Positions 1,655-31,681 are shown, counted from the stretch's first letter. The stretch: 32,000 nt of DNA from an uncultured Candidatus Babeliaceae bacterium (GCA_963704655.1 OY969927.1:465192-497191), one strand, 5' to 3'. Notes: generated by a model from the letters alone, not told the origin. Translations and numbers: made by a program.

Positions 1655-1673
1655 TTTTAACCCCTTTTTTTAA

Positions 1674-1823
1674 CCGCTTAATACTTCGACTAGCTCAGTA
1701 TGAGCGGTTTTTTTGTGATTTTTACGTCCAAGTCGCTCATCCTGATACTTCGACTACCTCAGTACCAGGGGCCCGCCTGCCCGCCGAAGCTTTACGCGAA
1801 GGCTGGGTCGAAGGGTTGGCGAC
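1674..1823. repeat. ORF-less cluster of GC-rich palindromic repeat modules, same family as the GIY-YIG element arms
   Basis: Contains ccgcttaatacttcgactagctcagtatgagcgg. Also contains gtcgctcatcctgatacttcgactacctcagtaccaggggcccgcctgcccgccg...gtcgaagggttggcgac. It shares catcctgatacttcgac and cagtaccaggggcc.gcccgccg with the arms at 17148-17393 and 23474-23640. Confidence 0.7.
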
Positions 1824-8566: not shown

Positions 8567-9106
8567 TTACTTCTTCTCGCACGTAAAAACTAAATGTCCC
8601 GGATAACCGCCTGAAAAGAATGGTTTAATTTTCTCATCGGTATAAAGTTTTGCATTCAGTGTCCCGCAAGCTTGACTTGCTAAAATATTAATCAAGCCTT
8701 CATTTTTTTTATCTATACCAGGCTTTAAAGGTTCTTGTGTAATAGCATAGAATTTATCAGCCACAGGCTGTATTACCCAGTTTATAGTTGAATCATTCGG
8801 ATTGCTTGTCCAACGCGCAACTTTTAATTTTTGAAGCGGCTTTGCGGTAACCTTATTAGCAGAATCAATGCTTACCAATCCAGCACCAAATTGCGCACAG
8901 AGTGCACGCGCATCAGCTTCGGCCATATTTGGCTCCACCACATCAGACTTACTAAGCATCTTTACATGTGTATGATCGACTGTGATAGTAAACTGATCTC
9001 CTAACTGGGGCTGGAAATAATAATCTGCATTGTATACATCAGGCATACCACCAGCCTGCAAACCTACAGCTGCAAACGAACAGAGTAATAAAAATAACTT
9101 TTTCAC
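8567..9106 (-). CDS. hypothetical secreted protein (GTG start)
   Basis: 179-aa ORF with signal MKKLFLLLCSFAAVGLQA. AGGAGA lies 5 nt upstream of the GTG at 9106. Confidence 0.6.
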   Translation of the reverse strand: MKKLFLLLCSFAAVGLQAGGMPDVYNADYYFQPQLGDQFTITVDHTHVKMLSKSDVVEPNMAEADARALCAQFGAGLVSIDSANKVTAKPLQKLKVARWTSNPNDSTINWVIQPVADKFYAITQEPLKPGIDKKNEGLINILASQACGTLNAKLYTDEKIKPFFSGGYPGHLVFTCEKK

Positions 9107-9242
9107 AACATTCTCCTGAATTTATAAAATTAACACTATATATCTATAAATTCAGGTTAACAAAGAATATCGATAAAAATCAAGAGTTTTAATATAAGAG
9201 ATAATTGATTTTATATTAAAAACTTAAACAAAATTATTATAT

Positions 9243-9287
9243 TTACTCATAAACAGCGACTTTTGCCGGGCGGAGGATCACTGTCCC
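9243..9287 (-). pseudogene. orphan duplicate of the last 14 codons plus stop of grpE
   Basis: The minus strand reads GGG ACA GTG ATC CTC CGC CCG GCA AAA GTC GCT GTT TAT GAG TAA, which is GTVILRPAKVAVYE*. This is identical in protein to the real grpE end at 9794-9838. The two differ at 5 nt, all synonymous third positions. Confidence 0.8.
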
Positions 9288-9293
9288 CTCAAT

Positions 9294-9340
9294 CCGTGCA
9301 CCCTGAGTGTTCACCGCAGGTGAATGTATCGAAGGGTCGG
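9294..9340 (-). repeat. hairpin repeat unit U1 (inverted orientation)
   Basis: Its reverse complement is ccgacccttcgatacattc-acc tgc ggt-gaacactcagggtgcacgg. Confidence 0.75.
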
Positions 9341-9360
9341 CATTTAATTTTATATGACTT

Positions 9361-9420
9361 CCGCTATCCTTCGATACATTCTACTTCGCTAAAGCTTCGT
9401 AGAACACTCAGGATGCACGG
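9361..9420 (+). repeat. hairpin repeat unit U2
   Basis: ccgctatccttcgatacattc-tac ttcgctaaagcttc gta-gaacactcaggatgcacgg. It overlaps the last ~11 codons of the GIY-YIG ORF. Confidence 0.75.
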
Positions 9421-9709
9421 GATCACAGAATTTCTTTTTGGCGTACTCCGTAAGCAACTTAAAATCCCCTGTAATAAGTGCTTCTTTTTTCTTTCGGGTC
9501 CACCCTTTTAATTTTTGCTCAAGCTTAAAAGCTTCAGTGCGCTCTTCTAACGCTGCATGAAAAACTAATGTAACAGGCAATCTTGTTGAGGTATATCCGC
9601 AAATCATCTTATTTTGATGGTCTATAACACGCTTTTCAAGATCATCAGTTTGTCCAACATAATAAGAATCATCACTGCACTTTAAAATATAAACATAAAA
9701 ATATTTCAT
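9389..9709 (-). CDS. small GIY-YIG nuclease family protein (COG2827/UPF0213 type)
   Basis: MKYFYVYILKCSDDSYYVGQTDDLEKRVIDHQN...EQKLKGWTRKKKEAL carries the GIY/YIG motifs, the conserved R/H and the Glu. It is a paralog of 17468-17764 and 23175-23480. Confidence 0.85.
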   Translation of the reverse strand: MKYFYVYILKCSDDSYYVGQTDDLEKRVIDHQNKMICGYTSTRLPVTLVFHAALEERTEAFKLEQKLKGWTRKKKEALITGDFKLLTEYAKKKFCDPVHPECSTKL

Positions 9710-9730
9710 ATAACTTGTTAGACATTAATA

Positions 9731-9781
9731 ATCGCTATCCTTCGATACATTCCCCCGCTGGGGGAACACTCAGGATGCACG
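9731..9781 (+). repeat. hairpin repeat unit U3
   Basis: tcgctatccttcgatacattc-cccc gct gggg-gaacactcaggatgcacgg. Confidence 0.75.
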
Positions 9782-9793
9782 GGGATGGGGAAT

Positions 9794-10243
9794 TTATTCA
9801 TAAACAGCGACTTTAGCAGGGCGCAGGATAACTGTCCCCATGCGATAGCCTTTTTGCAATACCTGTGCAATAGCGCCAGAAACAGCCCCTTCAACTAACG
9901 GCGTTTGCATAATCGCTTCATGTAAATTTGGGTCAAACTGGGTATTTTCGGTAATTTCAGTAACATTAAAGCGACTAAGTACCTTTTTAAATGCTTTATA
10001 GATAAGCTCAAATGCCGGGTTTGATATATCATGCTGTGCACGGTCAAAATCATCAACAATGTCGATCAATTGCGTCAAAACATCTGCTTGTGCAGCCTGT
10101 GACCACTGGCCACGTTGAGCTTCCATGCGCTTTCTATAGTTATCAAAATCAGCCTGCAAATAGGCATATTGTTGCCTACAGCGCACTAATTCGTCGTTAT
10201 CGCGCACAACTGTTTCTTGGTTAAGATTATTATTTTCTTCCAT
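9794..10243 (-). CDS. grpE: nucleotide exchange factor GrpE (short form)
   Basis: 149 aa with LQADFDNYRKRMEAQ and a C-terminal GYRMGTVILRPAKVAVYE, both typical of GrpE. Confidence 0.9.
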   Translation of the reverse strand: MEENNNLNQETVVRDNDELVRCRQQYAYLQADFDNYRKRMEAQRGQWSQAAQADVLTQLIDIVDDFDRAQHDISNPAFELIYKAFKKVLSRFNVTEITENTQFDPNLHEAIMQTPLVEGAVSGAIAQVLQKGYRMGTVILRPAKVAVYE

Positions 10244-11754: not shown

Positions 11755-11796
11755 AGTTTTTAAGAATTAAAGAAGCTAACATCACTTTCAATTCCC

Positions 11797-11826
11797 AACC
11801 CTTCGACTACGCTCAGGGCGAGCGGT
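11797..11826 (+). repeat. solo repeat module (CCCTTCGAC-TACG-CTCAGGGCGAGCGG)
   Basis: aacccttcgactacgctcagggcgagcgg closely matches cgctaacccttcgacaagctcaggatgagcg of the GIY-YIG element arms. Confidence 0.55.
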
Positions 11827-11864
11827 ACTAGGAGGTCGTGAGTTATCAACAAGAAATTATGTAA

Positions 11865-15453: not shown

Positions 15454-17094
15454 ATGAACAGTCTCAATATTCTTATTCAAGCATTTAAAAATCATATTAT
15501 TCAGTTATACCCAAGCGTAAGCATTGCCTGCGACGTTACCCTTAATGTTGATCCACAACGTCAACAATTTGGTGATCTTTCTTGTAATGCAGCAATGCTT
15601 TATGCAAAAGAGCTTAAAGCAAATCCACGCGCTATTGCACAACAGATAATTCAAGATTTTAAACACCCATTAGTAAAAAATGTCGAAATCGCAGGCCCCG
15701 GTTTTATTAATATCACCGTTACCGATAGTTTCTTTCCCCAACTTCTTACGGAACTGCAAACGCAGGGTGACAATTTTTTTAAACTCGATAAAGATTATTC
15801 TTTTAAAAAATTTAATATAGAGTTTGTCAGCGCAAACCCAACGGGCCCTTTACATCTCGGGCATGGCCGCGGTGGCATTATTGGCGATGTTCTTGGTACC
15901 ATTTTACGCTTTCTGGGCCATACCGTTACTAAAGAGTTTTATATCAATGACGCGGGTAACCAAATAGAAAAACTCGGAGCATCATTTAAAATTCGCTGCC
16001 AACAAGAGCTTGGATATTCTGTAGAAATTCCTGAAGATGGTTACCATGGTGAATATCTTAAAGAACTGGCACAACAGGCTCATGCTGAACTCGGCGATAA
16101 ACTGGCAACACAACCAGATTCTTTTTATGCTATCTACGCAAAAGAATATTTATTACAAAAAATCAAAGAAACTCTTGCAGCCTATGGCATCGTTTTTGAT
16201 GTCTGGTTCTCAGAAAAAACATTACACAATTCTGGCGCAATTACCAAAGGATTAGAGATTATCAAAAAAAATGGTTATCTCTATGAAAAAGATGGTGCCG
16301 AATGGCTGAAGTCAACTGAATTTGGCGATGACAAAGACCGTGTCTTAAAAAAGGCTACTGGCGAGCTGACCTATGTTGCTGCAGATGTTGCTTATTTAGA
16401 AAATAAAATTGAACGCGGCGCAGATAAACTCATCATAATTTTAGGACAAGACCATCACAGTTATGTAGTACGTCTTAAAGCCGTATTACAAGCGCTTGGC
16501 AAAGATCCGAATATGCTTGATGTTATTTTATATCAACTTGTTACCATTAAAGAATCTGGCCAACAAGTGCGCCTTTCAAAGCGTGCAGGCAAAATAGTTT
16601 CACTTGAAGATATTACTGAAAATGTCGGCAAAGATGTGGCACGCTTTTTTTACTTACACAGAAAAGCTGATGCACATTTAGAATTTGATATTGCCCTTGC
16701 ACTTTCACGCACAGAAGAAAACCCGGTGTATTATATTCAATATGCCTATGTTCGCACACTCAGTATGCTTGAAAAAGCAGAATCACTTTCTATTAAAGAT
16801 ATCACGTGCGCAGATGCGGAACATATTACAGAAAAAGAAGCACTCTTAATTAAAAAAATAGTAGCATTAAAACTGTTACTTGAAGATATTTCTCAGCATT
16901 ATCAAACGCATTTATTAACCTATTATGTTCATGATCTTGCACAACTGTTTTCAACCTATTATGGCAGCACCAAAGTTATCGATACCAATAATATTCCCGT
17001 AACCCGCGCACGGCTTTTAGTTGTTATGCAATTACGTGATACCTTTAATCTCTGCCTACGCCTTCTTGGCGTTGGAACACCTGACAAGATGTAG
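15454..17094 (+). CDS. argS: arginine--tRNA ligase
   Basis: 546 aa with the class I HIGH region SANPTGPLHLGHGRG. The ArgRS anticodon-binding C-terminus is present (YIQYAYVR...). Confidence 0.95.
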   Translation: MNSLNILIQAFKNHIIQLYPSVSIACDVTLNVDPQRQQFGDLSCNAAMLYAKELKANPRAIAQQIIQDFKHPLVKNVEIAGPGFINITVTDSFFPQLLTELQTQGDNFFKLDKDYSFKKFNIEFVSANPTGPLHLGHGRGGIIGDVLGTILRFLGHTVTKEFYINDAGNQIEKLGASFKIRCQQELGYSVEIPEDGYHGEYLKELAQQAHAELGDKLATQPDSFYAIYAKEYLLQKIKETLAAYGIVFDVWFSEKTLHNSGAITKGLEIIKKNGYLYEKDGAEWLKSTEFGDDKDRVLKKATGELTYVAADVAYLENKIERGADKLIIILGQDHHSYVVRLKAVLQALGKDPNMLDVILYQLVTIKESGQQVRLSKRAGKIVSLEDITENVGKDVARFFYLHRKADAHLEFDIALALSRTEENPVYYIQYAYVRTLSMLEKAESLSIKDITCADAEHITEKEALLIKKIVALKLLLEDISQHYQTHLLTYYVHDLAQLFSTYYGSTKVIDTNNIPVTRARLLVVMQLRDTFNLCLRLLGVGTPDKM

Positions 17095-17147
17095 TCAAGA
17101 GCAAAATAATATTAACGAAATATAACTAAGCTTTCATCCTCAAAAGT

Positions 17148-17393
17148 GTGTCACCCTGATACTTCGACTGGTGTGTAAACGCACTATTTTTGCTTAGTAC
17201 TAAAGACCAGTTGAACTTGCCTGCCTGCCGCCGTTTCATTCTTATGCTTCGACTTGCCTTTAGTATTGAGCTTGTCGAAATATCAGCACGTGGGTTTACT
17301 CCTGAGCCTGACGAAGGGCTCGCTCATCCTGATACTTCGACTAACGCTCAGCAGTAAAGGCTCGCTCATCCTGAGCTTGTCGAAGGGTTAGCG
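17148..17393. repeat. left arm, a mosaic of GC-rich palindromic modules
   Basis: 17236-17332 matches 22984-23080 with 2 mismatches in 97 nt. The outer part is homologous to the reverse complement of 23560-23640. Confidence 0.75.
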
Positions 17394-17424
17394 CGAATAT
17401 TTAAATTATATTTAATAATAAAAA

Positions 17425-17433
17425 TGTTATAAT
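17425..17433 (+). promoter_or_regulatory. extended -10 promoter element (TGtTATAAT) for the GIY-YIG ORF
   Basis: tgttataat lies 35 nt upstream of the ATG. The same element sits at the same offset in the paralogous element (23125-23133). Confidence 0.4.
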
Positions 17434-17467
17434 TAATCTAAGTTTAAATTTTATAAAGTGTAAGAAA

Positions 17468-17764
17468 ATGTCGGATCAAGTTTTTTATTTATATATCCTA
17501 CAATGTAACGACCAATCATATTATGTTGGCCATACTGATGATATCGAAAAGCGTATTGCTGATCATGCTGCCGGTCTGTGTGGTTATACTTCAAAAAGAT
17601 TACCTGTAAAATTAATTCATATTGATCAATTTCAAGCGCGGGACGAAGCATTTATTGCTGAACATAAAATAAAAGGCTGGACTAGAAAGAAGAAAGAGGC
17701 TTTTATGCAAAAAAAATTTGATGAATTAATTAGGTTATCTAATTTTAAAAAAGAAATTATTTAA
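17468..17764 (+). CDS. small GIY-YIG nuclease family protein (COG2827/UPF0213 type)
   Basis: FYLYILQCNDQSYYVGHTDDIEKRIADHAAG...EHKIKGWTRKKKEAF. About three quarters of residues are identical to 23175-23480. Confidence 0.9.
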   Translation: MSDQVFYLYILQCNDQSYYVGHTDDIEKRIADHAAGLCGYTSKRLPVKLIHIDQFQARDEAFIAEHKIKGWTRKKKEAFMQKKFDELIRLSNFKKEII

Positions 17765-17785
17765 ACTATATACTTTACGCTAATT

Positions 17786-17857
17786 CGCTAACCCTTCGAC
17801 AAGCTCAGGATGAGCGAGCCTTTAGTACTGAGTTTATCGAAGTATCAGGGTGACACC
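17786..17857. repeat. right arm of the element
   Basis: cgctaacccttcgacaagctcaggatgagcgagcc...tcgaagtatcagggtgacac is the reverse complement of left-arm modules. Confidence 0.75.
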
Positions 17858-17924
17858 TTTAGCGCCACAAGAGCTTAGTACTCCCTACATAAACAAATGG
17901 GGTTCTATAATACTTTTTTATTAA

Positions 17925-19286
17925 CTAGTTTTGCTGAGTATGATCAAATACTTTTACTGGCTGATATTCACCATGCATTCCGCATAATGCGTGATAAAAA
18001 TGCGCAACATAGAGTATTGGAACCTGCCACTGAATAGCACGGTAGCGAGCGCACATAAGCATTTGATAGCGCATATAATCACGCTTGAGCCAACTATCGT
18101 TACAGAATGCAATTATAGAAGTATTCTGCTGAAGTTCGTGGTCTGGGTAAGTATTAAAAAACAGTTCTGAGCAAATATAGGGCACTATTTTTAAATTTTT
18201 GGTAATCTGCCAAAAGGGGCGCCTGCGGGTGCTTGGGTGTATGCCGATAAAATTTTTAAAAAAATATGCATGTGCCCCACGTTCAGTAAGTGCCATTGCA
18301 TGCCGTTTATCAAATAAATCAATCAAAACACCATCATGAATCCAATAAACGGTATTTCGATATTTGCCATTATCCCATCTAAAGCCGCCAGTAAGTATGG
18401 TAACCGACTTACCAAGCTGTTCTTGGTTTAAAAGAGCAACAACCTGTGGCTCACCGGGTAAAATCGGACACCGAATGGCAGTTTCATGAAAAAGAATCAT
18501 ATCACTTTCAGGGTACTGCTTTAAAAGCGCTTTACAATAATCACGAATCGCTCTTCCTGTATGCATAACAGAATCATGAGCATTAAAATATTCACGCCCA
18601 CAGGCAATAGTAGTATGGTTAATAATATGCGCTCTATGCGTATGCGAAATTATGATACCCATAAGCCACACGCCCACAAAAAACAGAACTGCTAGCCAGT
18701 AATATCTTCCCCAGCAAATGGCAGCGCTTATAAACGCCTGGGTAGCGATAAAAATAAATAATAATAAACTTGAACCGATTTTAGGCAACCAAAACAACAT
18801 GCCAGAATATTCTACTAAGGGGACCAGTGGGTTAAAAAGTAGATACCCTTCAACTGCGCCAAGCATAAACAAAGACCCTCGTTCAAGAAACAAGAAAAAT
18901 AACCAGGTAAAAATAGCAGCGCAAAATAAACGTACACCTGGTGATTGCGTAATAAAGCGTAGCGATATAAGCAAAAAAAACCAGCTCAAGCCATAACAAT
19001 AGGCTACGAGTAAAACCAATACCGGTGGAATAAGTTTAAAAAAAATATTACCAGATCCGCAGCAATAAAGTCCCTCTGCAATAGCCCAAAACTGCAAAGA
19101 AAAAGCAATGCCAGACCAAATTACTCCATGGAAAATCGTTACTTTATCATGAATGATAAGATAAAAAAGTGGGATTAAAAAAATGCATGCGGCCCACCAA
19201 AAAAATTGTGGCCATAAAAAGGGCATGATATAAAGACACGAGCTTATACAACACAAGTAAAAACCATCTGCATTACAATATTTCAT
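17925..19286 (-). CDS. lnt: apolipoprotein N-acyltransferase
   Basis: The N-terminal half is polytopic membrane. The C-terminal half is a carbon-nitrogen hydrolase domain with E/K/C triad contexts (ILFHETAI, FDKRHAM, VPYICSELFF). Confidence 0.75.
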   Translation of the reverse strand: MKYCNADGFYLCCISSCLYIMPFLWPQFFWWAACIFLIPLFYLIIHDKVTIFHGVIWSGIAFSLQFWAIAEGLYCCGSGNIFFKLIPPVLVLLVAYCYGLSWFFLLISLRFITQSPGVRLFCAAIFTWLFFLFLERGSLFMLGAVEGYLLFNPLVPLVEYSGMLFWLPKIGSSLLLFIFIATQAFISAAICWGRYYWLAVLFFVGVWLMGIIISHTHRAHIINHTTIACGREYFNAHDSVMHTGRAIRDYCKALLKQYPESDMILFHETAIRCPILPGEPQVVALLNQEQLGKSVTILTGGFRWDNGKYRNTVYWIHDGVLIDLFDKRHAMALTERGAHAYFFKNFIGIHPSTRRRPFWQITKNLKIVPYICSELFFNTYPDHELQQNTSIIAFCNDSWLKRDYMRYQMLMCARYRAIQWQVPILYVAHFYHALCGMHGEYQPVKVFDHTQQN

Positions 19287-21630: not shown

Positions 21631-22194
21631 ATGAAATTACGTAAAATACAATTAACTCTTGCACTGCTTGTTGCAGCATTAGGCTCACAAGCTCTTTTTG
21701 CAGCCACAGAACCGGCAAATAAAAGTATTATCGATACTTATGCTAAAGGTGTTGAAAATGCACTTAAAGTCGCTGCTGCTAAACCTGAAACTGGTTGTAA
21801 CGTTATGGGTACACTTGCTGGTAGATATTTAAAAACAGCTCTTGTAACTCCAGATAACGTTGCATTGGCACAAGTTTATTGCTGTGAAGATGCTAAATTT
21901 AAAGATAAACATCCTAAAGCTTATGAATCATTGTGCCTTGGTACTTCAACTAATAAAGTTGTAGAAGGTTTAATCGGTAAAGTAGGTGTAGCACCTGCTA
22001 AAACTTGCCCAGTTATCGGTAAACTTGGTAGAACTTTAAATAGTTTAACTGAAGACCAAAAAACAACATTATGTGTAACTTGCGGTGATTTATGGAAAGA
22101 TAAACACCCTAAAGCTCGTGAAGTAGTTTGTTCACATATGCAAGAATCAGCTGAAGACGTATTGTCTGAAGAAGATGTTATAGAAGCTGAGTAA
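21631..22194 (+). CDS. secreted protein with two 4-Cys modules and an acidic tail (paralog 2)
   Basis: Strong SD (aaggag) and a signal peptide. Modules are TGC..x..CCEDAKFKDKHPKAYESLC and TC..x..CVTCGDLWKDKHPKAREVVC. Confidence 0.7.
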   Translation: MKLRKIQLTLALLVAALGSQALFAATEPANKSIIDTYAKGVENALKVAAAKPETGCNVMGTLAGRYLKTALVTPDNVALAQVYCCEDAKFKDKHPKAYESLCLGTSTNKVVEGLIGKVGVAPAKTCPVIGKLGRTLNSLTEDQKTTLCVTCGDLWKDKHPKAREVVCSHMQESAEDVLSEEDVIEAE

Positions 22195-22209
22195 TATTCG
22201 TTATCTTAA

Positions 22210-22242
22210 AAAAGTGGGGGGGTAAAACCCCTCACTTTTTAT
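22210..22242 (+). terminator. intrinsic terminator
   Basis: agtgggggg-taaaa-cccctcact (one bulge) followed by ttttt. Confidence 0.6.
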
Positions 22243-22266
22243 TATATAAGATCAGAGAGTCACTTT

Positions 22267-22896
22267 ATGAAAAACAAATTCTTATTAAAAAAAATTTTAT
22301 CTATCCTGCCACTCATAGCAATTACCAGCATGTCTATTACAGAAATTATGGCAGATGCAGGAATCCCCGCAACGACCCTTAAAAAAGCACTGAATCTAAC
22401 TGGAGTTGACGAAACAACAGGCTGTACATTACTCAGTTCAGCAGGTGAGCTTCTGAAACCGCTCAGTTCAAGTGAAAAAGGTCGCGCATGTGTTACCTGC
22501 GGTGACAATTGGGCAAAAGATGAGAAAAATAATGGTAAAGCACTTACCGTAGTTTGTGGAAAAACAGGATCCCCAACAGACAAACAAAAAGAAATTTTAA
22601 CCAGGGCCCTTACTGATTGTGAACAATTAGCTTTGCTCTATCGCCGCTTTGATTTACTTTCTAAAGATCAACGAGTTCAAGCAGTATCAACCTGCTTTGG
22701 TAAATGGGACCAACACCCTAAAGCTCGAAACGCTCTTATGAAACAACCAGTTGATCTGGATGAATCAAAAGAAGTAAAAGGTGATTTGCCAACATGGCAG
22801 GAAGTCTCACAAATGCAAATTCTTGCTAAGGCTGATGCCAAAGGGCAAGTTACGCAAGAGATTACCGAAGAACAATTTAAAGCAGTTATTAAGTAA
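22267..22896 (+). CDS. secreted protein with two 4-Cys-type modules (paralog 3)
   Basis: Signal/anchor segment. Modules are TGC..x..CVTCGDNWAKDEKNNGKALTVVC and DC..x..TCFGKWDQHPKARNAL. Confidence 0.65.
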   Translation: MKNKFLLKKILSILPLIAITSMSITEIMADAGIPATTLKKALNLTGVDETTGCTLLSSAGELLKPLSSSEKGRACVTCGDNWAKDEKNNGKALTVVCGKTGSPTDKQKEILTRALTDCEQLALLYRRFDLLSKDQRVQAVSTCFGKWDQHPKARNALMKQPVDLDESKEVKGDLPTWQEVSQMQILAKADAKGQVTQEITEEQFKAVIK

Positions 22897-22980: not shown

Positions 22981-23101
22981 GTGTCATCCTTATGCTTCGA
23001 CTTGCCTTTAGTATTGAGCTTGTCGAAATATCAGCACGTGGGTTTACTCCTGAGCCTGACGAATGGCTCGCTCATCCTGAGCCTGTCGAAGGGTTAGCGA
23101 G
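22981..23101. repeat. left arm of the element
   Basis: Near-identical to 17236-17332. It also contains the inner IR module. Confidence 0.75.
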
Positions 23102-23124
23102 CGCTATTAAATTTATTACTAAAA

Positions 23125-23133
23125 TGATATAAT
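23125..23133 (+). promoter_or_regulatory. extended -10 promoter element (TGaTATAAT)
   Basis: tgatataat lies within the AT-rich core, upstream of the GIY-YIG ATG. Confidence 0.4.
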
Positions 23134-23174: not shown

Positions 23175-23480
23175 ATGTTAAACCAGAATTTTTTTGTTTA
23201 TATACTTGAATGCAAAGATAAATCCTATTATGTTGGACATACTGATAATATTGAAAAACGTATTGCAGAACACGCTGAGGGTATGTGCGGATACACATTA
23301 AAGCAGCTACCGGTAAAATTAATTTATATTGAGCAATTTCAAACTCGAGATGAAGCATTTATTGCTGAACATAAAATAAAAGGCTGGACTAGAAAGAAGA
23401 AAGAAGCGTTAATGCAGAAGAGATTTGATGAGTTAATTATATTATCAAATTTCAAAAAAAAATTTCCTGAAACTCGCTAA
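23175..23480 (+). CDS. small GIY-YIG nuclease family protein (COG2827/UPF0213 type)
   Basis: FFVYILECKDKSYYVGHTDNIEKRIAEHAEG...EHKIKGWTRKKKEAL. The stop codon lies inside the right-arm IR. Confidence 0.9.
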   Translation: MLNQNFFVYILECKDKSYYVGHTDNIEKRIAEHAEGMCGYTLKQLPVKLIYIEQFQTRDEAFIAEHKIKGWTRKKKEALMQKRFDELIILSNFKKKFPETR

Positions 23481-23640
23481 CCCTTCGACAAGCTCAGGAT
23501 GAGCGAGCATTTAGTGCTGATATTTCGACAAGCTCAATACTAAAGGCAAATCGAAGCATCAGGATGAGCGGCGGCGGGCAGGCCCCTGGTACTGAGCAAA
23601 ATAGTGCGTTTACGCACCAGTCGAAGTATCAGGATGACAC
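23474..23640. repeat. right arm of the element
   Basis: Its modules mirror the left arm. An additional outer part is homologous to 17148-17235 and 1732-1790 (cagtaccaggggcctgcccgccg; gtgcgtttacgcac hairpin). Confidence 0.75.
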
Positions 23641-23691
23641 CCTTTGCAGAAAAGTTTTTTTCTTAAATATATTTCATCGAACTTATGTTAC

Positions 23692-30785: not shown

Positions 30786-30813
30786 AAAAGGGCCCGGATT
30801 TCGGGCCCCTTTT
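30786..30813. terminator. bidirectional intrinsic terminator between convergent genes
   Basis: aaaa-gggcccg-gattt-cgggccc-ctttt. Confidence 0.7.
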
Positions 30814-31165
30814 AATTAGAATCTTGATTTTTTTTCAACCCAGCTTCTCTCTTTTTCTTTTCTAAATTTCTTTGAAATATAAGAAGTGCACTATTTAAAT
30901 TAAATTCATCAAATTGTTTAATGGTCATATAACCCCGTTCTCTTGGGGTATACTTTGAGGCGAAAGCATCAACAAATGCTTCTATAAGTTGATTTCCATA
31001 CGAAGGGCGTCTTCTTAAAATATAATTTATTGTTTCCGTTCTAAAAGTCGAATTATTTGCATGCGTAGATACATGAGCATTTTGAATATCAACTTGCTTA
31101 GGACAGAACAAATCTGTTGATACACATGCAGCTGTCACTAAAAAAAATAGTTTTTTGTAATTCAT
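30812..31165 (-). CDS. hypothetical small secreted protein (paralog A)
   Basis: 117 aa with signal MNYKKLFFLVTAACVSTDLFC. The 5' end and upstream region are duplicated at 31471-31558. Confidence 0.6.
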   Translation of the reverse strand: MNYKKLFFLVTAACVSTDLFCPKQVDIQNAHVSTHANNSTFRTETINYILRRRPSYGNQLIEAFVDAFASKYTPRERGYMTIKQFDEFNLNSALLIFQRNLEKKKREAGLKKNQDSN

Positions 31166-31207
31166 ACAATACCTTTTACCGTAATAGTTAAAATTTTTGA
31201 ATCATAT
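31121..31207. repeat. ~87-bp duplicated block (5' coding end plus upstream region), copy 1
   Basis: Near-identical to 31471-31558 (gcagctg.cac.aaaaaaaatagttttttgtaattcatacaata.ccttttaccgtaatagttaaaa..tttgaatcata). Confidence 0.8.
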
Positions 31208-31227
31208 TATAAAGGGCTCGGAATTAT

Positions 31228-31515
31228 TTAAAGATTATCAATTATAGAGGATCCAAGACAATTCCGACATTCACCCATTAAATCGGCCTTTTGCATTTTA
31301 CAAAAACTAACATATCTTTCTTTTTGCCCGCGTGCAAAGCTATCAACCACAATAGCAGCCTGATCAATATTAAGAGGTATATTTCTTGCCAACCATCTAA
31401 TAGCTTTAGCTCTATTAACACTATCAACTGTAGGTGCAGCCGTATCTTCGACGCACAACACATGGGTTGTTATACACGCAGCTGCCACCAAAAAAAATAG
31501 TTTTTTGTAATTCAT
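31228..31515 (-). CDS. hypothetical small secreted protein (paralog B)
   Basis: 95 aa with signal MNYKKLFFLVAAACITTHVLC. Confidence 0.6.
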   Translation of the reverse strand: MNYKKLFFLVAAACITTHVLCVEDTAAPTVDSVNRAKAIRWLARNIPLNIDQAAIVVDSFARGQKERYVSFCKMQKADLMGECRNCLGSSIIDNL

Positions 31516-31558
31516 ACAATAACCTTTTACCGTAATAGTTAAAAAATTTGAATCATAG
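31471..31558. repeat. ~87-bp duplicated block, copy 2
   Basis: See 31121-31207. Confidence 0.8.
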
Positions 31559-31681
31559 TATTAATAAAATTAAGTATACATAACGCAATAAAATAGTACA
31601 TTTAAAGCTCCTATTGCTCTTATGCAATTTTACTACTATAGTAAAATTTACAGAAAATAGTATGTAAAAAAAAGGGCTACG

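Follow-up and report, generated by a model that had tools for sequence, protein, structure and literature searches.

A Stand-Alone GIY-YIG Nuclease Gene Framed by Inverted Repeats in a Candidatus Babeliaceae Bacterium: a Putative Nuclease-Plus-Cognate-Repeat Module

Introduction

A described system of a small GIY-YIG nuclease paired with its own repeat is Ssn/NTS. SsnA of Neisseria meningitidis is a 94-residue stand-alone GIY-YIG protein of the CDD family cd10448; it binds to NTS, a hairpin repeat, and cuts next to this repeat in single-stranded DNA only (Chenal et al. 2025, PMC11893778). Cleavage requires the conserved 5' flank of the repeat and tolerates any loop, including added extensions, and SsnA homologues of several bacteria cut their own flanking repeats, the SRM; the authors likened NTS-ssnA-NTS to an insertion sequence or a REP/RAYT pair (PMC11893778). 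Here, we analyze a 32,000-nucleotide stretch of DNA, referred to as the window, from an uncultured Candidatus Babeliaceae bacterium, phylum Dependentiae (GCA_963704655.1 OY969927.1:465192-497191). The window contains three GIY-YIG genes (9389-9709, - strand; 17468-17764, + strand; 23175-23480, + strand), all framed by related repeats and termed copies 1, 2 and 3. Copy 2, the subject of this report, is probably one of three nuclease-plus-cognate-repeat modules in the window, in which a hairpin-specific single-stranded DNA nuclease spreads its gene together with the repeat arms.

Ssn/NTS and the present system both encode stand-alone GIY-YIG proteins of about 95-100 residues, and in both the gene lies between inverted, oriented repeats, commonly dimeric on either side, in which a conserved 5' tag precedes a hairpin. 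In both, the loop is variable and solo repeats are scattered in intergenic DNA; the loop tolerance of SsnA matches the short and long loop forms found here. The tags are comparable, CGTCAT in NTS/SRM and CG[Y]TCRY here, and the outer unit of copy 2 starts with TGTCAY, which fits the SRM tag. The hairpins differ: NTS has a perfect 7-bp GC stem, whereas the present motif has an invariant CTGAG/TCGAAG core with non-Watson-Crick positions. The present family is a sister of the Ssn/NTS nuclease-repeat systems, with a different motif.

The Ssn work left open what other GIY-YIG branches do and whether a gene-plus-repeat unit moves. The present locus suggests that the Ssn principle also holds for a second branch, whose motif differs from that of Ssn and is conserved in many phyla. 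The comparison of filled and empty sites further indicates that the unit inserts at new places, here within the reduced genome of a bacterium that lives inside cells. For specialists in mobile DNA and in nucleases, the main points of interest are this direct evidence of insertion and a motif that is both distinct and highly conserved. If the biochemistry holds, tools for single-stranded DNA would gain a second recognition sequence that is sharply defined, and the reading, if true, would explain a repeat apparently widespread in bacterial intergenic DNA. Two statements of the original prediction for this DNA are outdated: that no such system had been mechanistically described, given Ssn/NTS-SRM (Chenal et al. 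2025, PMC11893778), and that COG2827 proteins have no characterised role, which no longer applies to the Ssn branch (PMC11893778).

Organization of the Copy 2 Element

The copy 2 gene (17468-17764, + strand) is the 297-nt open reading frame (ORF) of about 100 codons that had been predicted; its 98-residue product matches PF01541 with E 2.3e-14. The left arm (17148-17397, + strand) is a mosaic of five repeat units, namely an outer unit (17148-17190), a second unit (17254-17292, 24.1 bits), a partial one (17300-17318), a fourth (17320-17350) and an inner unit adjacent to the gene (17359-17397, 44.2 bits, E 9e-9). The right arm (17782-17856) consists of an inner unit (17782-17820, - strand) and an outer unit (17816-17854, + strand) arranged head to head, with covariance model scores of 43.0 and 30.6 bits, respectively.

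The arms are nested inverted repeats, as originally proposed. The perfect 35-nt inverted repeat that pairs 17359-17393 with 17786-17820 is real, and constitutes the core of a longer 47-nt pair (17347-17393 / 17786-17832) that is 96% complementary. The perfect 20-nt outer repeat is real as well, with a correction at its right arm: the left copy, GTGTCACCCTGATACTTCGA (17148-17167, + strand), is perfectly complementary to 17837-17856, and not to 17838-17857. With as many as 3 mismatches allowed, the window contains 5 and 7 matches to the repeat cores, whereas shuffled sequence would be expected to contain 0.00 and 0.03.

Between the inner unit and the gene, 35 nt before the ATG, lies an extended -10-like motif of the TGnTATAAT form, TGTTATAAT (17425-17433, + strand). 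The motif of the predicted promoter is thus present, but a promoter consensus scan did not report it because a -35 hexamer is missing; TGTTATAAT is a promoter-like motif and, from its sequence, a candidate promoter only. The description of copy 2 as a minimal element stands in that the GIY-YIG gene is its sole gene; the arms are mosaics of alternating units, amounting to 246 nt on the left and 71 nt on the right, and the ends are undefined. Gene matches place the element where it had been located, between the convergent 3' ends of argS (15454-17094, + strand; three ArgRS Pfam domains) and an lnt-like gene (17925-19286, - strand; CN_hydrolase match).

Coupling of the Nuclease and the Motif across Phyla

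The three window proteins have 98, 101 and 106 residues and score 53.9, 62.6 and 54.9 bits against PF01541 (cut-off 22.6). They are single-domain proteins in which the GIY-YIG match spans residues 6-76 or 4-75, with no Pfam match other than GIY-YIG. The residues Y9, Y19, R29 and E65 are invariant in an alignment of 17 family members. Clustering at 50% identity divides the family into more than 150 clusters. In a distance tree it forms a clade apart from three Ssn-type and six UPF0213-type proteins, with identities of the window family of 22-42% to the former and 25-47% to the latter. A family profile assigns at least 113 bits to its own members and 50-77 bits to UPF0213 proteins. The closest solved structures are the UPF0213 proteins 1ywl and 1zg2, with E of about 3e-14 (2.5e-14 for 1ywl); no SsnA structure was found by PDB sequence search. 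Relatives were not found in viral contigs, PHROGs gave no match, and PADLOC returned nothing useful.

A scan of representative genomes yielded at least 580 relatives, of which the best 80 loci were kept; the 83 homologous loci analyzed span Dependentiae, Proteobacteria, Chloroflexota, Nitrospirota, Binatia and others. A TCGAAG-type core, mostly within the full motif, occurs within about 330 bp upstream of the gene in 61 of the 83 loci, its inverse downstream in 68, and both in 50. The short form of the motif reaches a density of 3.9 per kb within 150 bp of the gene versus about 0.03 per kb beyond 1 kb, and its orientation is fixed, predominantly forward upstream (46:14) and reverse downstream (47:18). 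The anticipated co-occurrence of arms and gene across phyla is therefore borne out by strong local enrichment in a fixed inverted orientation. Rather than being species-wide repeats distributed independently of the gene, an alternative raised in the original prediction, the motif copies are enriched about 130-fold beside it.

The 146 distinct short-form instances define the consensus CCGYTCRYC-CTGAG-CYTG-TCGAAG-GRY, in which the 5' tag is conserved in sequence; the form of the CCGYTCRY tag in the window is CGCTCAT. In many loci a longer hairpin takes the place of the 4-nt loop. Pairs 11-29 and 12-28, which adjoin the core, are 97% paired in the 146 instances, with 72 and 25 double changes, respectively. 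The covariation score of 0.280 compares with 0.146 for shuffles, none of 500 of which reach 0.280, and with 0.07-0.13 for slid partners. A literature search with the motif string returned no match, and the CTGAG/TCGAAG motif is apparently undescribed so far.

Two minor points concern the loci themselves. The flanks on both sides of the GIY-YIG gene are common to L006 and L009, bins labelled Rhizobium sp. and Candidatus Kuenenia stuttgartiensis, one of which has apparently been misbinned or mislabelled. Annotated family members often extend past the nuclease domain into the downstream repeat, with tails such as ALRLRSGRTRE (L089 1195-1515), and many family representatives of 120-180 residues probably owe their length to read-through into the repeat. 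The CTGAG/TCGAAG repeat is presumably also a frequent source of spurious translated peptides such as PFDKLRMS.

Lineage-Specific Insertion of the Three Copies

The sites of the three copies were compared with those of the nearest independent relatives, in which ArgS is 83-88% identical. The assignment of the window to Candidatus Babeliaceae, phylum Dependentiae, likewise follows from relatives of its ArgS. The spacer between argS and lnt measures 830 bp in the window (17095-17924) and is missing in its entirety from the four relatives L099-L102, where the two genes are separated by 0 bp (L099, L102) or about 75 bp (L101), or overlap (L100). At the copy 1 site, the distance between a gene of 351 codons and grpE is 1306 bp in the window and 50-58 bp in L103 and L104. 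At the copy 3 site, a gene of 156 codons and mutS are 2161 bp apart in the window and 71 bp apart in L103. The three sites are thus empty wherever the contig of a relative reaches: argS-lnt in four relatives, grpE in two and mutS in one. Neither motif copies nor GIY-YIG genes are present in the loci of two relatives (21.6 kb and 14.7 kb), which are collinear with the window over the common genes. Because the sites of the relatives are empty and lack both the motif and the GIY-YIG gene, copies 1, 2 and 3 are lineage-specific insertions. The proposal that the nuclease and its cognate repeats form an insertable unit gains support from the empty argS-lnt sites of four independent relatives. L001 was rejected as a related strain that conserves copy 3, since its genes and arms are 100% identical and it represents the same organism rather than an independent one.

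The DNA between the outer inverted repeat of copy 2 and the argS and lnt genes is also missing from the relatives. As the whole 830-bp spacer is new with respect to them, the exact ends of copy 2 are undefined.

A 48-nt direct repeat flanks copy 1 on both sides: a displaced duplicate of the 3' end of grpE (9241-9288) repeats 9792-9839 with 43 of 48 nucleotides identical. Both repeats encode the 14 residues and the stop of GTVILRPAKVAVYE*, and each of the 5 differences falls at a third position and is synonymous, with a probability of about 0.002 by chance. L103 agrees with the displaced duplicate at the few positions compared. The duplicate, a single case, fits the trace expected after recombination with an element-bearing, diverged donor.

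Relationship to Described Nuclease-Repeat Systems

The published BLAST criterion for Ssn proteins is a blastp match to SsnA (CAX49033.1) with E < 1e-10 and at least 75% query cover (PMC11893778). It was run with the NTS-flanked orthologue of N. gonorrhoeae (L096) as a proxy and a 1-Mb search space. With this gonococcal proxy, the window proteins give E-values of 3e-8, 8e-5 and 7e-3 and fall outside the threshold, and 4 of the 83 family members fall within it. A tblastn search with the window protein against two complete N. gonorrhoeae chromosomes gave no match at E <= 1e-3. The SRM consensus HGTCWYN(0-2)YYVSBRHN(0-5)WNVSBRGN(0-2)RNCYNB has 0 matches in the window and 5 in the 83 loci, none of them beside the gene. 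As a control, the same consensus finds 6, 2 and 4 matches around the Ssn genes of N. gonorrhoeae, Aeromonas caviae and Azospirillum lipoferum, respectively. The NTS-flanked architecture was confirmed on these three reference genes, which had been recovered with a probe sequence used as bait only, and the covariance model of the present motif finds no match in the three loci. Copy 2 thus appears, by the sequence tests run, to be built like NTS-ssnA-NTS while belonging to a separate branch rather than to Ssn.

Five weak tblastn matches were rejected as Ssn references, being UPF0213-type genes without repeats, and six regions around solo NTS matches in plasmids contain no GIY-YIG gene. PLSDB files two complete N. 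gonorrhoeae chromosomes as plasmids. The ssnA orthologue L096 (NZ_CP119142.1 1881119-1882573) has no in-frame ATG where its start would be expected, and may instead begin at a different codon or represent a pseudogene.

The UPF0213 proteins, of the B. subtilis YazA and E. coli YhbQ type, share size and the GIY-YIG core with the present family and are its nearest relatives with solved structures, the family being 39-47% identical to Bacillus and Listeria genes. They differ in that their segment G-x-G-A-K-Y-T-R is replaced here by G-Y-T-S-x-R-L-P, and K-K-L-x-R by K-G-W-T-R. Compared with YazA, YhbQ, EF2693 and BH0048, the window proteins fall outside UPF0213, with a separate clade, a mean identity of 35% and the replaced G-x-G-A-K-Y-T-R segment. 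None of five UPF0213-type loci has a flanking repeat pair, and the only model match among them is marginal and lies upstream in L095, within an annotated ORF. As recorded for Bacillus and Enterococcus, UPF0213 genes overlap an annotated tRNA methyltransferase gene.

The organization is also analogous to that of REP/REPIN-RAYT pairs, in which one small nuclease gene lies between inverted copies of the palindromic repeat that is its presumed target. In both systems, repeats also form dimers and mosaics where convergent genes end, and some lineages inherit the gene vertically (PMC2817692, PMC3116915). By contrast, RAYTs are HUH/Y1 transposases that cut and rejoin DNA, while the enzyme here is a GIY-YIG hydrolase, and the repeat tag here is not GTAG. 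The three window proteins have GIY-YIG as their sole Pfam match and no HUH/Y1 transposase fold, which places them outside the RAYTs.

CGTC-tagged REPs (dRS3, RPE-4/6), for which no dedicated enzyme was known in 2013 (Di Nocera et al. 2013, PMC3733652), are likewise tagged, oriented palindromic repeats, found mostly as head-to-head dimers (PMC3733652). Their perfect 8-9 bp stems starting with AT and their loops of 4-5 nt differ from the present motif, and correspond to the NTS/SRM type rather than to CTGAG/TCGAAG. GIY-YIG homing endonucleases of the I-TevI type have in common with the window proteins the catalytic domain and the association with gene mobility. They differ by a C-terminal DNA-binding domain, double-stranded cutting and residence in introns or phage genomes, none of which apply here. 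The window proteins end soon after the catalytic domain and score 16-20 bits against the group I intron endonuclease model TIGR01453, the cut-off of which is 56.

Proposed Mechanism and Alternative Explanations

The 98-residue protein consists of a GIY-YIG catalytic domain alone and would act on the motif that flanks its gene. The proposed substrate comprises the CCGYTCRY tag followed by a hairpin, in which 2-3 covarying pairs would close the CTGAG/TCGAAG internal core and a loop that is free to vary in length. On the model of SsnA, binding would take place only when the motif is single-stranded, as during replication, repair or DNA uptake, and the bound strand would be nicked a few bases 5' of the hairpin. 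Since the flanking copies are inverted, each strand would present one correctly oriented site outside the gene. Nicks at flanking or solo sites, followed by recombinational repair from a gene-carrying copy, would then spread and homogenise the gene and its arms, in a process that resembles homing rather than cut-and-paste transposition. Nick-induced recombinational copying is favoured over transposition because a GIY-YIG hydrolase cannot rejoin DNA. The single-stranded DNA specificity, the position of cleavage and the mechanism of spread are what we infer; the repeat anatomy, the conserved catalytic residues, the coupling of gene and motif, the covarying pairs, the three insertions, the correspondence of paralogues with arm types and the gene-free repeats are what we observe.

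Several observations weigh against this proposal. Copies 2 and 3 have no flanking direct repeat longer than 8 nt that would mark a target duplication, and the exact ends of both are undefined. Folding with DNA parameters of 8 sequences showed that single units are not more stable than shuffles, with six z-scores between -0.64 and +0.65, one of -1.31 and one of -2.68; the hairpin therefore rests on the 2-3 covarying pairs. Whether the loop is short or long does not depend significantly on protein similarity (permutation p = 0.075), and the motif is missing within 160 bp of the gene in 12 of 80 classified loci. Six loci of Sphingomonadales have the gene in the same place, between nrdR and a methyltransferase gene, and the conserved synteny in Sphingomonadales and Herbaspirillum looks like vertical inheritance rather than mobility. 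Movement needs host functions, a GIY-YIG nuclease alone being unable to join DNA. In addition, the branch is known from its sequences, and the biochemistry available is that of Ssn.

A broader version of the proposal is tentative and, in our judgment, rather doubtful. The family would be the third phylum-spanning nuclease-repeat partnership after RAYT/REP and Ssn/NTS, with a GIY-YIG protein of about 100 residues as the sole protein of a self-propagating element, CTGAG/TCGAAG with its CCGYTCRY tag as a universal single-stranded hairpin core, and a nick-induced, homing-like spread, of which the grpE duplicate would be a co-conversion scar.

Alternatively, the arms could be an independent REP- or MITE-like family that is moved by another enzyme or by recombination, with the GIY-YIG ORF as a passenger or preferred neighbour. 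Such a family would account for the solo units and arms without a GIY-YIG gene, which include three model matches in the window and all six metagenome contigs that carry an exact 30-mer of the inner unit, and for the arms of copies 2 and 3 being more similar than their genes. However, the same core flanks one protein family, in inverted orientation, across unrelated phyla, and is about 130 times denser beside the gene; the window elements contain no transposase by ORF and Pfam scans, and the collinear loci of two relatives lack both gene and repeats. We consider this explanation improbable.

It is similarly unlikely that the protein is a housekeeping UPF0213-like repair nuclease, and that the repeats act as RNA, to terminate transcription, to stabilise the mRNA or to form an autoregulatory structure. 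The protein is closer to UPF0213 (YazA, EF2693, BH0048) than to Ssn, the gene displays long-range synteny in Sphingomonadales, a terminator-like hairpin lies within the arms, and covariation alone cannot separate RNA from single-stranded DNA. Against this, the promoter-like TGnTATAAT of copies 2 and 3 follows the inner unit and precedes the ATG, which would leave the upstream unit outside the mRNA, and the downstream copy, as a reverse complement, would yield an RNA of another sequence. A flanking repeat pair is missing from the five UPF0213-type loci, where the model gave the one marginal match in L095, and three lineage-specific insertions in 32 kb are unlike a housekeeping gene. A search of the whole window against Rfam at gathering thresholds detected no known RNA families.

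Finally, a free-standing homing endonuclease gene with a double-stranded host target, whose repeats would be remnants of repeated homing, is a very improbable source of the element: GIY-YIG domains do drive homing in phage and organellar introns, and the 48-nt grpE duplicate at copy 1, with its synonymous differences only, resembles co-conversion from a diverged donor, but the protein has no DNA-binding domain and scores far below the TIGR01453 cut-off, the three insertion sites have no common target, and neither viral contigs nor PHROGs provided a relative.

Other Copies and Repeats in the Window

Copy 3 is the closest paralogue of copy 2. Its gene (23175-23480, + strand) encodes 101 residues (PF01541, E 4.4e-17) and is preceded by the -10-like motif TGATATAAT (23125-23133). 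The proteins of copies 2 and 3 are 77% identical and the genes 80% identical at the nucleotide level, while the arm modules reach 93-96%. The left arm of copy 3 (22982-23103, + strand; model matches 23002-23040 and 23065-23103) is 96% identical to 17226-17332, and the modules of its right arm (23471-23645, - strand; model matches 23471-23509 and 23511-23549) align with the left arm of copy 2. The outer left end of copy 2 matches the outer end of copy 3 (23598-23645) at 94% over 48 nt.

The copy 1 element (9289-9791, - strand) is more distant. Its gene (9389-9709) encodes 106 residues (PF01541, E 1.1e-14), the protein is 51% identical, and its repeat unit is different, with a hairpin inserted between CTGAG and TCGAAG. 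The long-form units at 9739-9790 (- strand), 9364-9418 (- strand) and 9294-9345 (+ strand) read CTGAG-[inserted hairpin]-TCGAAGG.

All arms are assembled as mosaics from common modules, of which each arm retains another subset. The gene-proximal module CTCGCTCATCCTGAGCYTGTCGAAGGGTTAGCG is retained in every arm; the unit orientation alternates, and every arm holds head-to-head dimers. The copy 2 left arm also contains a terminator-like hairpin with a T-run that faces argS (17169-17196, + strand), and an equivalent module in the copy 3 right arm (23598-23625) faces mutS. These outer modules are oriented to stop transcription that enters from argS or mutS.

Repeats without a GIY-YIG gene are found at two further places in the window. 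A cluster at 1672-1830, with model matches at 1672-1710 (- strand, 36.8 bits) and 1736-1774 (- strand, 31.2 bits), aligns with the arm modules, and a solo unit, ACCGCTCGCCCTGAGCGTAGTCGAAGGGTT (11789-11828, - strand; 27.2 bits, E 1.5e-4), lies directly 3' of an ssb-like gene. The six metagenome contigs with the exact 30-mer of the inner unit all lack a GIY-YIG gene in the flanks. One unrelated contig of 59% GC (L105, JAAUYH010062408.1) has, directly upstream of a cysS-like gene, a solo copy of the exact 30-nt inner unit of this AT-rich element (2220-2249). A tRNA integration site was excluded as a target, as the window has no tRNA genes.

Additional ORFs accompany copies 1 and 3. An ORF of 179 codons (8567-9106, - strand) within the lineage-specific block of copy 1 has no Pfam, PADLOC or PHROGs match, and is missing from the syntenic site in two relatives. 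Beside copy 3, two ORFs of 187 and 209 codons (21631-22896, + strand) are missing from the syntenic site of L103, and the 209-residue protein has no Pfam match; the two may have arrived together with the copy 3 element or separately. Elsewhere in the window, 31104-31213 and 31454-31564 contain direct repeats of 74 and 43 nt, 85-91% identical and 350 bp apart, which extend over two small - strand ORFs (30812-31165 and 31228-31515) and suggest a tandem gene duplication.

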